Virus record (IMG/VR): IMGVR_UViG_3300045988_003325
Span: 1 to 5,753 of that record
DNA length: 5,753 nucleotides
Source of the DNA: a virus
Direction: 5' to 3' (one strand)
The notes beneath the pieces are model-generated. The model was not told the DNA's origin. It did not search any database and was given only the letters and a program-made list of their open reading frames with translations. The translations under genes were made by a program, and so were the position numbers. Of the stretch, positions 1,591-5,753 are shown piece after piece. Position 1 is the first letter of the stretch. Each line of letters opens with the position of its first letter.

Positions 1591-3237
1591 TTACAGCTTG
1601 TACAAGCCCGGTACGCTGTACAACGGCATCCGTCTTGTGGTTTTGTTTGCTACGCGGATAGCTCCGAAAAATTGCGGCTCATTCTGCACAACGAGTGTGC
1701 GTGCAATTTCGTTCTTGCCTTCTTCCATCCAGTCTTGCGATAGTGTCGGTGCGGTTGAATAATTGTCTGCGTAGTGCCAGAAATCTAACGTGCCTGTTGC
1801 GTTGCTTCGCATGAGGCCGCTTACCCGGTTTGGTTTCATTCGGTAGTCCGCCCAGGCCTCCTGATAGCCGAATGTTTCTTCGTCCGTTGCCGTGCCGGTC
1901 AACATGATTTCTTTTTTCTTTACGGGCTGTTCGCCTATATTTGCAAACTGCGGTACATAGTAGTCTAGTCTGTCTTCTCGACTCCAGAAACGTTCCAAGC
2001 CTTGCTGATAACTGCGATTGTGTCGCACACAACAGACACCAATTACAAATCCATGCTCTTCAAAAGATTTGGTAAAAGAGCTTTCGTTTATCGGCGTTAC
2101 TGACATTGCACCAGTTTCGCCCAGCGGTGACATATCGTTTGCCGCTGTCTGCACGATTTGGTTGATATTGACGTGATATCTGCCGCCGCCCAGGTATTCT
2201 GGAATCTGTATCGTTTTGTCGCTGATAGTTACATTCCACAGTGCTTGTACCTGTTCGCGGTATCTGCTGCCGCCTCGTGCGAGCGCTTCGTAGTACTGCT
2301 GTACTGCTACGGCTTTTCTTAAGTCGTTGATCGTTGCTGCGGTTACACTGCTAAGGTCTGCTTTTAGGAATGCTTCTGCGGTGTAGTTACCTCCTTCAAT
2401 TGTGCCTTTTCCTGTCAGTTTTCCCGCTTTTTCCGTGTTTGTAAAGTTCGTTGTGCCGTTTGCCGGCCACGGCTGGTTTAGGATTATTTTATCTGTTATT
2501 TTGGCGGTATCTTGGATGGTGTTATATCCAAATACCGGTGCATTACCTTCCATCGGCAGCGTTACTGCCGGCCCGCGCTGAGGATAAGGCAGACAGCTTG
2601 TGAAGTAGTCGTGAAATTTGTTTACAGGTAACAGGTTTCCGCCTTTGTACGCGTTGTTTTCTGCTTCTTGCACCCAATCTTCATTTCCAAATTCGTAGTC
2701 TACGTTTGCATCGTCTGTTTTTAACGTTGCTACGTTATCTACGTTTTCATCTCTGAAAAATTCATTCCAGATTTTTACATACGCTCTTATGGGTAGTGCG
2801 TTAATGCTAAATTCTTTTTTAATTTTGGTCGGCACTCCCATATAGTCCAGTATGGATCTTTCGTTTGGTTTTGGTGCTGCGTCCGTTCCTTTGATTTTGA
2901 TTTTCGGCACTGCGTATTCTTTTTTTGGCATCCATGGTGTTGCTTCTACTTCTCCCATGAAGTATTTGAAGTTGTCCCACAGAATTCTGTTAGGACAATA
3001 GAAATAGTAGAAGTCAATGAATGCATCGTCCATCACCGGGTATTTCGGTGTGCTCATTCGTATGATTGCTGCTGTATCCACGTTGAAGGTATCGCCCGGT
3101 AATACCTCGTCAACATAGAATGGAATCAGCTTGCCGGAATCGAACGTTGTTAAAACCGTCTGGTCTCGGTTGAACCGTGTTCGGCTCGCTTTCATTTCTG
3201 GGATTTGGTTGAAGTGCCGTTCGTTGTTTCGATTCAC
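1591..3237 (-). CDS. VP1: Major capsid protein VP1 (548 aa), gokushovirus-type; GTG start codon
   Basis: Translation MNRNNERHFNQIPEMKASRTRFNRDQTVLTTFDSGKLIPFYVDEVLPGDTFNVDT... matches the conserved N-terminal block of gokushovirus VP1 (..SRF......TFD.G.L.P.YVDEVLPGDTF..) and the size is typical (530-570 aa). The first codon is GTG (revcomp of 3235-3237). An in-frame TAA lies 6 codons upstream, so no ATG alternative exists. A perfect AGGAGG lies 7 nt upstream. Confidence 0.93.
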   Translation of the reverse strand: MNRNNERHFNQIPEMKASRTRFNRDQTVLTTFDSGKLIPFYVDEVLPGDTFNVDTAAIIRMSTPKYPVMDDAFIDFYYFYCPNRILWDNFKYFMGEVEATPWMPKKEYAVPKIKIKGTDAAPKPNERSILDYMGVPTKIKKEFSINALPIRAYVKIWNEFFRDENVDNVATLKTDDANVDYEFGNEDWVQEAENNAYKGGNLLPVNKFHDYFTSCLPYPQRGPAVTLPMEGNAPVFGYNTIQDTAKITDKIILNQPWPANGTTNFTNTEKAGKLTGKGTIEGGNYTAEAFLKADLSSVTAATINDLRKAVAVQQYYEALARGGSRYREQVQALWNVTISDKTIQIPEYLGGGRYHVNINQIVQTAANDMSPLGETGAMSVTPINESSFTKSFEEHGFVIGVCCVRHNRSYQQGLERFWSREDRLDYYVPQFANIGEQPVKKKEIMLTGTATDEETFGYQEAWADYRMKPNRVSGLMRSNATGTLDFWHYADNYSTAPTLSQDWMEEGKNEIARTLVVQNEPQFFGAIRVANKTTRRMPLYSVPGLYKL

Positions 3238-4762: not shown

Positions 4763-4904
4763 GGCTGTTTCCTCGCTTTCTGTTTTGATTGTATCATCTT
4801 TTTTGTCGCTTGTCAATTGTTTTTTTGGCTTGAATGGCGCTTTAGCGCCTTGCCGTGCGTAGCGCATGCGGAGCTCGGCTTAATCCATTCCTTTTTAGCG
4901 CTGT

Positions 4905-5025
4905 GCGCGTTTTTAACACTTTCAACATTTTCAACAGCTTTTCAACAAAATATTGCACAATGATTTTCGTCATTTTGACGAACATTCAACATTTTAACAT
5001 TTTTTCAACAAATCTTTCAACATTG
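4905..5025. repeat. Iteron-like direct repeats: six perfect TTCAACA copies (4921, 4930, 4941, 4985, 5004, 5016) plus degenerate TTAACA copies, all in one orientation, 9-12 bp apart, in two clusters of three
   Basis: Read directly from the sequence. Each copy is preceded by a T-tract, giving ~10.5-bp phasing. The extended unit TTTTCAACA is 8/9 identical to the DnaA-box consensus TTATCCACA. Confidence 0.6.
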
Positions 5026-5120
5026 TTTTTTGTTATTTATTTACGCTTTAACGTTAAATTTTAGTACTTATCAACTTTTCCACATTGCCTACTACTACGT
5101 CTACAACAAGTTAATATTAT

Positions 5121-5190
5121 ATCGCGCGTGCGCGCGTGCGCGCTATCGCGCGTGCGCGCGTGCGCGCTATCGCGCGTGCGTGCACGTGTG
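5121..5190. repeat. GC-rich tandem repeat: the 24-nt unit ATCGCGCGTGCGCGCGTGCGCGCT occurs as two exact copies (5121-5144, 5145-5168) plus a diverged partial copy (5169-5190) ending in the palindrome CGTGCACG. Alternating purine/pyrimidine (CG/TG) tract.
   Basis: Exact copies verified by eye. About 85% GC inside a ~43% GC genome. Many self-complementary CGCGCG/GCGCGC blocks allow alternative hairpins in ssDNA or Z-DNA in dsDNA. Confidence 0.75.
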
Positions 5191-5236
5191 AATTAGATTA
5201 TTTGATAGACTGAATAGTCTGATATATGGAGTCTTT

Positions 5237-5276
5237 AAACGACAAAAGCCCAGTGCTTACTTGATAGGCACTGGGC
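5237..5276 (-). terminator. Rho-independent terminator downstream of VP4 on the minus strand: 9-bp stem GCCCAGUGC/GCACUGGGC, 11-nt loop, then UUUUGUCGUUU
   Basis: + 5248-5256 gcccagtgc and 5268-5276 gcactgggc are exact reverse complements. The A-tract at + 5244-5247 gives the U-run on the minus-strand RNA. Lies 21 nt after the VP4 TAA (5299..5297). Confidence 0.55.
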
Positions 5277-5296
5277 TAGGTGACACCATGACACTG

Positions 5297-5753
5297 TTAA
5301 AGTGTCCCTTTTTTCTTTGTTTGTTTCTTGATTACTCTTTCTTTTGTCTTGCACTGTTCCGTAAAGTCTGCGTTTTCATACTTAAGCCTGTTTTCTGCTA
5401 TGACTGCTTCTTGTCTGTTCTGCTTAATTCTCCACAATCTTTGTGGGTTTTCAGCTTCCATCATTTTTTCATAATAACGTGGAATTTGTGCGTGTTTTCC
5501 GTTTGTGCATTGGATATAGCCTTGCTTCCATATTTCTGCTTTGTGTTCTTGGTAATAGTGGTCTCCCAGGCCTGGCTTGAGACTCATACATGCAAAAGGT
5601 TTTTGTTGCCCTAGTTCATAGTATGCGTTTGCCTTTATTCCGTCTATTTCGTACATTTTTTTTGTAACGTACCCTGCAACATATCTATATGTTTCTGGCA
5701 CTGCTTGTGCTATCTGTATTTGACCCATGCCCCATATGTTTGCTAGCCATTTA
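5297..5753 (-). CDS. VP4: Replication initiation protein VP4, C-terminal part (continuation of the gene whose start is at 662). Nt 5655-5753 duplicate nt 1-99.
   Basis: The track ORF 5297..5728 (MGQIQIAQAVPETYRYVAGYVTKKMYEIDG...) is in frame with, and contiguous to, the N-terminal part across the circular junction. It contains motif 3 YVAGYVTKK and ends at TAA 5299..5297. Confidence 0.9.
   Translation of the reverse strand, partial: KWLANIWGMGQIQIAQAVPETYRYVAGYVTKKMYEIDGIKANAYYELGQQKPFACMSLKPGLGDHYYQEHKAEIWKQGYIQCTNGKHAQIPRYYEKMMEAENPQRLWRIKQNRQEAVIAENRLKYENADFTEQCKTKERVIKKQTKKKGTL
5655..5753. repeat. Terminal redundancy: 99 nt identical to window positions 1-99 (circular genome closure; unit length 5,654 nt)
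   Basis: Exact string identity of 5655-5753 with 1-99 checked base by base. The VP4 reading frame is continuous across this junction. Confidence 0.9.

Follow-up and report, generated by a model that had tools for sequence, protein, structure and literature searches.

Why would a minimal single-stranded DNA phage that encodes its own replication initiator carry an ordered array of sites resembling those of the bacterial initiator DnaA? The question arises from the DNA analysed here (the window, 5,753 nt in full), a gut gokushovirus genome with all genes on the minus strand: VP2 (659-1552), VP1 (1591-3237), VP3, VP5, two small ORFs, a peptidase M15 gene and VP4, the last of which spans both window ends. 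Positions 1-99 are identical to 5655-5753 over all 99 nt, which represents the assembly overlap of a circular genome, and the unique circle is 5654 nt. Reading VP4 over the junction produces an apparent duplicated 32-aa stretch, an artefact of the same end overlap. The repeats are located in the 534-nt intergenic region between VP4 and the peptidase M15 gene (4763-5296). The longest peptidase M15 ORF begins at 4867; a near-consensus sigma-70-type promoter of the peptidase M15-led operon (minus strand, 4816-4788; TTGACA, 17 nt, TG-n-TACAAT) and a ribosome-binding site, GAGGA, indicate instead that ATG 4762 is the true start. We know of no established need for DnaA in a phage whose rolling-circle replication has an initiator, VP4, of its own.

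Results

Ten co-oriented repeats head a compact intergenic cassette

A sequence-only reading of the window had reported six TTCAACA repeats of the same orientation in two clusters, each preceded by a T-tract. The six exact copies start at 4921, 4930, 4941, 4985, 5004 and 5016, all six on the plus strand and nowhere else in the 5753-nt window, compared with 1.23 expected; 0 of 200 dinucleotide-preserving shuffles reached six. With two TTTAACA variants (4912 and 4993) added, the heptamers form two clusters of four, whose spacings from start to start are 9, 9 and 11 in one cluster and 8, 11 and 12 in the other, and T-runs do precede most copies. The extent proposed for the array, 4905-5025, was right about the repeats and wrong about the end point, with two more boxes found at 5068-5084. 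Likewise, the claimed 8/9 match to the DnaA box holds only against the relaxed consensus TTWTNCACA; against the strict box TTATCCACA, TTTTCAACA has two mismatches (7/9). The full array consists of ten co-oriented 9-mers (TTTTCAACA, TTTTCCACA, TTATCAACT) spanning 4910-5084, beyond which lie TTGC, the triplets CTA CTA CTA CGT CTA CAA CAA and a 12-nt A+T-only run. Boxes, spacer, trinucleotide repeats and AT-rich element together form a 213-bp oriC-like cassette on the plus strand (4909-5121).

The distal cluster A (plus strand, 4910-4947) contains four boxes, TTTTTAACA at 4910-4918, CTTTCAACA at 4919-4927 and TTTTCAACA at both 4928-4936 and 4939-4947. Its consensus over 114 cassettes is TTTTCAACA TTTTCAACA CTTTCAACA GG TTTTCAACA, and its box pair TTTCAACAggTTTTCAACA is found in the oriC of candidate hosts (see below) as well. 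The middle cluster B (plus strand, 4983-5022) also has four, CATTCAACA (4983-4991), ATTTTAACA (4991-4999), TTTTCAACA (5002-5010) and CTTTCAACA (5014-5022), with the consensus TTTCAACA A TTCAACA AG TTTTCAACA AAAC TTTCAACA over the same 114 cassettes; the third box is a perfect DnaA box TTATCCACA in 14 of them, and host locus L158 has TTTTCAACTTTTCAACAagTTTTCAACA. Between the two clusters lies a 7-3-7 palindrome, TTCGTCA TTT TGACGAA (4966-4982), which is conserved in most cassettes and resembles a dimeric-protein site or a small hairpin. A second palindrome is present at 5047-5058, and the host origins have no counterpart of either.

The proximal tandem boxes (plus strand, 5068-5084) are TTATCAACT, with two mismatches to TTATCCACA, and the abutting TTTCCACA, which as the 9-mer TTTTCCACA has one. 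They are followed by the 4-nt spacer TTGC (plus strand, 5085-5088), replaced by NCCC in most relatives and by cccc or gccc in host oriC. The triplets at 5089-5109 read 3'-GAT GAT GAT GCA GAT GTT GTT-5' on the minus strand. Overlapping the last of them and the start of the AT-rich run is an almost invariant, phage-specific 13-mer, CTACAACAAGTTA (plus strand, 5101-5113), which is kept in 12 of 14 BLAST-found relatives and absent from host oriC. The A+T-only run TTAATATTATAT (5111-5122; 12 nt, 100% A+T), a candidate DNA unwinding element, has the consensus ATATATAATAATA over 114 cassettes, and at the matching position the AT-rich DNA of host oriC is longer (~25-40 nt versus 12 nt in the phage).

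The whole-cassette consensus thus runs from four boxes through a spacer with TTCGTCA-N3-TGACGAA, four further boxes and an AT-rich spacer with TTTAACGTTAAA to TTTTCAACT TTTCCACA, NCCC, CTA CTA CTA CNN CTA CAA CAA G and the A+T run, and is closed by GC-rich hairpins that vary in sequence. The cassette folds only weakly as single-stranded DNA (z -1.9), which fits a double-strand function, and 5100-5296 is strongly structured (z -4.6). A search of Rfam found no known RNA family, the best matches falling far below gathering scores.

The proximal part matches the basal unwinding system of bacterial origins

The oriC basal unwinding system (BUS) was defined in Bacillus subtilis incC as DnaA-box#6/#7, DnaA-trios and an AT-rich element (Richardson 2016, Pelliciari 2021/2023). 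A DnaA-trio is 3'-NAN-5', preferentially 3'-GAT-5', and the mode of the BUS spacer is 10-13; the DnaA-trio and the DnaD recognition element are defined in PMC8287927 and PMC10201434. According to the rule of Pelliciari 2021, a BUS has a DnaA box with ≤2 mismatches, a spacer of ≤16 bp and ≥3 DnaA-trios. We applied this rule by script, with perfect CTA trios, to the whole genome. A single genome site satisfied it, namely TTATCAACT/TTTTCCACA followed by TTGC and three CTA, and a comparable box with three CTA occurred in only 2 of 500 shuffled genomes.

The agreement extends to the details. Both boxes, TTTTCCACA at 5076-5084 and TTATCAACT at 5068-5076, are within the permitted mismatches and have the same strand and orientation as in B. 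subtilis; the spacers, 12 nt from the upstream box and 4 nt from the proximal one, equal those in the B. subtilis row of Table S1. Three perfect GAT trios are followed by GCA, GAT, GTT and GTT (5089-5109), and the adjoining 5111-5122 is all A+T, although shorter than in host origins. TTGC at 5085-5088 corresponds to the 'GC-rich' gap of the BUS. The B. subtilis BUS reads TTATCCACA AATCCACA GGCC CTACTATTACTTCTACTA and then A/T (Pelliciari Table S1, printed as complement), and window 5068-5122 follows in the same register as TTATCAACT TTTCCACA TTGC CTACTACTACGTCTACAACAAG TTAATATTATAT, the proximal boxes (5068-5084) being the equivalent of DnaA-box#6/#7. In Firmicute origins, the strand opposite the trios carries a DnaD recognition element of two or more 5'-TnnT-3' motifs (PMC10201434); this too has its counterpart, TACT occurring twice in CTACTACTAC on the plus strand (5090-5096). 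One typical, though not strictly defining, feature of a BUS is a dnaA/dnaN neighbour, and here the element lies between VP4 and peptidase M15. We thus refer to the cassette as a mimic or variant and not as a chromosomal oriC.

The cassette is conserved, with the boxes as its most constant part

More than 110 gokushovirus genomes contain the cassette. Matches to the intergenic region were found in 44 gokushovirus records of GenBank, with window 4909-5167 as the core, and in some GenBank relatives this region is the sole part of the genome that megablast detects. Searching relatives for the heptamer had been proposed as a check on the repeats, and they passed it: all 14 BLAST-found relatives have 4-9 copies in one orientation. 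In a pattern scan of IMG/VR that matched at least 120 contigs, 111 of the 120 listed were microvirus genomes with the cassette, a sample picked by a pattern inside the cassette and thus inflating the apparent conservation of 5098-5113 and accounting for part of that of CTACAACAAGTTA. The nine non-microvirus matches listed were chance matches inside coding repeats, without boxes, and were discarded. When relatives were picked by VP1 capsid similarity alone, 72 of 80 had the array, and the exceptions were mostly partial contigs.

Across 114 unique cassettes, the mean number of heptamers is 6.75 forward and 0 reverse, and pairwise identity is 92% in box columns compared with 60% in non-box columns. 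TTTTCAACA, TTTTCCACA and the perfect TTATCCACA replace one another at homologous positions of the cassette, which lends comparative support to the earlier description of the repeats as DnaA-box-like. The classical cultured gokushoviruses phiMH2K, SpV4 and Chp2 have no box array and no convincing BUS, so the cassette is not a general feature of the subfamily. Full-text literature searches agreed with the sequence-only reading that nothing of the kind is described for gokushoviruses. In the searchable literature, from which most subscription journals are excluded, we found no such element for Microviridae or gokushovirus combined with DnaA box, oriC or replication origin, nor for DnaA-trio combined with phage; a full-text search for TTTTCAACA returned primer lists only.

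The cassette is inverted or relocated as a unit

Of 115 genomes, 87 share the arrangement of the window, in which the cassette directly follows VP4 and its boxes are on the non-coding strand. A lineage of 23 genomes with ~38-40% identical VP4 has it between VP2 and VP4, boxes on the coding strand, and the remaining 5 have it inverted downstream of VP4. Four close relatives (L023, L069, L101, L137) have exactly window 4909-5121 inverted in situ between collinear flanks; the flank 4824-4912 remains collinear where the cassette is inverted. Because of this in-situ inversion in four relatives and the move upstream of VP4 in the other lineage, the cassette is a self-contained unit that tolerates either orientation, and such tolerance counts against both a directional promoter element and a single-strand signal specific to one strand. 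GC-rich runs, GCGCTGTGCGCG (4895-4908) and CGCGCGTGCGCGCG (5123-5136), flank the invertible cassette and are partly self-complementary. They could have mediated the inversions in the four relatives.

Bacterial dnaA-dnaN origins carry the same boxes and arrangement

The predicted boxes of Ruminococcus albus are TTTTCAACA GGT TTTTCAACA, and Clostridium acetobutylicum and C. botulinum have CAACA-type boxes followed by NNCC and (CTA)n (Pelliciari Table S1). We scanned 185,579 bacterial species genomes for three copies of TTTTCAACA with short gaps, and at least 120 arrays matched. At least 11 of the arrays listed are directly beside a gene with DnaA signatures, all of them in Oscillospiraceae, Ruminococcus or Eubacteriales, and Pfam confirmed the order DnaA - array - DnaN - RecF at two loci. 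Before dnaN, these origins end in TTTTCAACAgTTTCAACA(g/c)cccCTACTACTACTACTA and then AT-rich DNA, for example TTTTCCACTgTTTCAACAgcccCTACTACTACTACTAttatatattt. The phage cassette closely matches Oscillospiraceae/Ruminococcus dnaA-dnaN origins in the unit TTTTCAACAgTTTCAACAgcccCTACTACTACTACTA plus AT-rich DNA, with (CTA)5 in host oriC where the phage trios lie. Phage cassettes and host origins are collinear, at 86-95% identity over 35-57 nt at the BUS, and at 71% over 212 nt with L215. At the free positions of the boxes the base frequencies are nearly equal too: A at position 6 has a frequency of 0.84 in phage and 0.80 in host boxes, and T at position 3 of 0.95 and 0.93. The suggestion that the repeats form part of a replication origin gains comparative support from this shared arrangement of DnaA boxes, DnaA-trios and AT-rich DNA. 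None of the 120 bacterial arrays listed has microvirus genes beside it, and an integration site at the host origin was rejected on this ground.

The DnaA proteins encoded at L153, L160, L171 and L215 have GGRDHSTV(V/I)Y(A/S) in place of the GGRDHTTV(L/I)HA of E. coli and B. subtilis, and lack the proline at the position of E. coli P423. The altered positions are presumably base-contacting. The substitutions at P423, T435 and H439 are suggestive, in that they fit an altered box preference and are possible determinants of the preference for TTTTCAACA; H439Y is present in M. tuberculosis DnaA too. Going by the origin sequences, Clostridial DnaA would bind TTTTCAACA.

The host cannot be told from the box alone, since Bacteroidales genomes (L145, L156, L173, L257) likewise contain arrays mixing TTATCAACA and TTTTCAACA, and these arrays have no adjacent DnaA signature. 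At these four loci the stretches viewed showed no CTA trios by the arrays, and Bacteroidales appear less likely as host. Thermotogota MAGs (Mesoaciditoga/Athalassotoga; L167, L199, L206, L241) have such boxes, and L167 has the BUS-like TTTCAACAgtacCTACTACTACTA; the CAACA box variant thus extends beyond one clade. Box and context in the cassette alone point to a phage host among Clostridia of the Oscillospiraceae/Ruminococcus type.

Neighbouring elements include candidate sites for VP4

Abutting the AT-only run is a GC-rich tandem repeat of alternating purines and pyrimidines (5120-5191; 2.5 copies of the 24-nt unit TATCGCGCGTGCGCGCGTGCGCGC), which bounds the cassette and is outside the inverted unit. 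Relatives have unrelated, perfectly palindromic GC-rich hairpins in its place, indicating that structure or composition is conserved and not sequence. The repeat might form a cruciform or Z-DNA, or be a barrier to unwinding.

A stem-loop at 5247-5277 lies 20-50 nt after the VP4 stop. Its stems co-vary in relatives (GCCCAGTG/CACTGGGC, GGCCAAGTA/TACTTGGCC, GGCCTAGTC/GACTAGGCC), its loop is conserved (CTATCAAGTAA on the coding strand), and 85 of 115 genomes, irrespective of cassette orientation, have TATCAAG 21-45 nt past VP4. Since the T-run downstream is not conserved, the stem-loop may be more than a terminator, and we regard it as a candidate rolling-circle origin for VP4. VP4 could alternatively act at the 13-mer CTACAACAAGTTA, whose complement TAACTTGTTGTAG has AACTTG in common with the phiX174 origin core. 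Origins of the phiX174 type have a conserved ~30-bp gpA recognition and nick sequence with CAACTTG/ATATTAATAAC on the packaged strand. Similarity here is limited to AACTTG, the complement of 5107-5112, and to ACTTGATA, which occurs apart from it on the non-coding strand, within the hairpin loop at 5247-5277; the matches are only 6-8 nt long, with a strand context that is inconsistent across genomes, and the SpV4 match to ACTTGATA is outside a hairpin. On these grounds we do not assign a phiX-like nick site.

Discussion

We consider the repeats to be, probably, host-variant DnaA boxes set in a 213-bp miniature of the Clostridia origin unwinding module. That they are DnaA boxes is very likely; that the cassette is an active site of unwinding or helicase loading is a somewhat weaker but still favoured proposition; any one specific downstream use can be suggested only tentatively. 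The site of action would be the double-stranded replicative form. There, host DnaA-ATP, from a Clostridia host whose DnaA uses the variant TTTTCAACA/TTTTCCACA, would bind the ten co-oriented boxes via domain IV, spread as an oligomer from the proximal boxes along the trio strand (the minus strand of the window) and melt the adjacent AT-rich 12 bp. The strand opposite the trios would offer TnnT repeats of the kind recognised by DnaD. The opened site could serve to load the host helicase, so that the replicative form is replicated (theta-type, DnaA-driven) or maintained, and/or supply single-stranded DNA to the phage VP4 endonuclease. DnaA binding, unwinding and a benefit to the phage are what we infer from the sequence.

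How such a site would fit a phage with its own initiator can be imagined in two ways, both of them speculative. The phage may have two replication modes, with VP4 rolling circle alongside a replicative form that behaves as a DnaA-dependent minichromosome ('oriC plasmid'), or melting by DnaA may license VP4 nicking at CTACAACAAGTTA. The minichromosome, if real, would provide non-integrative, cell-cycle-coupled persistence in Oscillospiraceae; under licensing of VP4, the orientation of the cassette would decide which strand is displaced and packaged. DnaA titration, DnaA-controlled transcription and complementary-strand priming are possible as secondary or alternative roles.

As explanations in their own right, these roles fare less well. 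The boxes might be a sink that titrates host DnaA to stop host initiation, or a DnaA-level switch of the phage promoter, and we regard this as unlikely. With ten boxes in every genome, times the copy number of the replicative form, the sink would indeed be large; cluster A is ~95 bp away from a strong promoter; and no part of the cassette is better conserved than the boxes. However, a sink or an operator needs neither the register of two boxes, 4 nt and trios nor the AT-only run, both of which are conserved and match real origins, and the order within the cassette is kept when it is inverted or moved away from the promoter.

A complementary-strand origin, on which DnaA bound to the trio strand, or, where the cassette has the opposite orientation, DnaD bound to the TnnT strand, assembles a primosome on the incoming single-stranded genome, comparable to the PriA site of phiX174, seems less likely still. 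Every single-stranded phage needs such a site, the coding strand (presumed packaged) carries 5'-TAGTAGTAG-3', the strand that DnaA binds, in 87 of 115 genomes, and the other strand matches the DnaD element. Yet DnaA boxes are read as duplex, and the cassettes contain no reverse heptamers with which to form duplex boxes in single-stranded DNA. Moreover, the boxes are the most constrained part of a nearly unstructured cassette, while strong structure lies next door at 5122-5296. A complementary-strand role may coexist with the main explanation.

The sequence-only reading had also offered iterons for a phage protein, and we find it very improbable that the repeats are bound by the initiator VP4 and mark the rolling-circle origin. 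They are direct repeats in an intergenic region beside the VP4 gene and adjoin the near-invariant CTACAACAAGTTA, whose complement has the AACTTG of the phiX174 origin core. Iterons of the Rep type co-vary with their initiator, whereas this heptamer is constant across VP4 proteins 38-100% identical, down to genomes whose VP4 is only 38% identical; bacterial dnaA-dnaN origins hold the same repeats with the same statistics; and an inverted cassette would shift the nick site to the other strand. Least probable of all are an UP-like or curved-DNA enhancer of the minus-strand promoter, a further suggestion of that reading, in favour of which are T-tract-phased repeats with 8-12 bp spacing upstream of the operon, and passively captured host DNA, for example an attachment site, which would explain the similarity to host oriC: an UP element has a fixed position and orientation just upstream of -35, whereas this promoter is outside the cassette, with the nearest box ~95 bp from the -35 hexamer and the cassette inverted or relocated in relatives, while captured DNA does not fit boxes under purifying selection across genomes diverged beyond megablast detection, nor an attachment site the absence of microvirus genes beside the 120 bacterial arrays listed.

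If the DnaA-dependent unwinding site proposed here is real, this would be the first virus in the searchable literature with a complete bacterial origin-opening module (boxes, DnaA-trios and unwinding element), and its carrier would be a minimal single-stranded DNA phage that itself encodes a rolling-circle initiator; how Gokushovirinae replicate in the gut, or persist there, would become a concrete question open to testing. The box variant and trio context would furnish a sequence-based host clue for abundant gut microviruses. The naturally minimised 213-bp origin would be a compact substrate for DnaA of uncultured Clostridia and usable as a replicon part in genetic tools for such Clostridia.

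Among known systems, the B. subtilis origin resembles the phage cassette in having upstream 'distal' box clusters as well as the BUS. Unlike the B. subtilis BUS, the phage element is in a 5.65-kb genome and not next to dnaA, its boxes are of the CAACA variant, it has the extra invariant 13-mer CTACAACAAGTTA, and its AT-rich element is only 12 nt, bounded by GC-rich repeats. The dnaA-dnaN origins of Oscillospiraceae, Ruminococcus and unclassified Eubacteriales (L146, L148, L153, L158, L160, L171, L191, L215) have in common with the cassette the box variant, the GG-spaced box pairs and (g/c)ccc followed by (CTA)3-5 and AT-rich DNA. These origins are 400-700 bp long with 5-19 forward and some reverse boxes, whereas the phage unit has 213 bp and one orientation only.

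Host DnaA boxes in the origin region of a mobile replicon are known from P1 oriR, pSC101, F, R6K and lambda, where the replicon's own initiator acts on its own iterons and one to few DnaA boxes serve as helpers. In contrast, the phage array is entirely of the DnaA type, with DnaA-trios and no separate iterons. The PriA n' site of phiX174 and the DnaA-box hairpin ('A site') of the ABC primosome (Masai and Arai) act as single-stranded DNA hairpins. As at these primosome sites, a small single-stranded DNA replicon would draw a host initiation protein to a specific site, but the cassette has no hairpin that makes a duplex box. Finally, the iterons of CRESS-DNA viruses (geminivirus, circovirus) are likewise short direct intergenic repeats in small circular single-stranded DNA with an HUH initiator. 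They co-vary with Rep and flank the nick-site hairpin, whereas the phage repeats show no co-variation with VP4 and match the site of a host protein.
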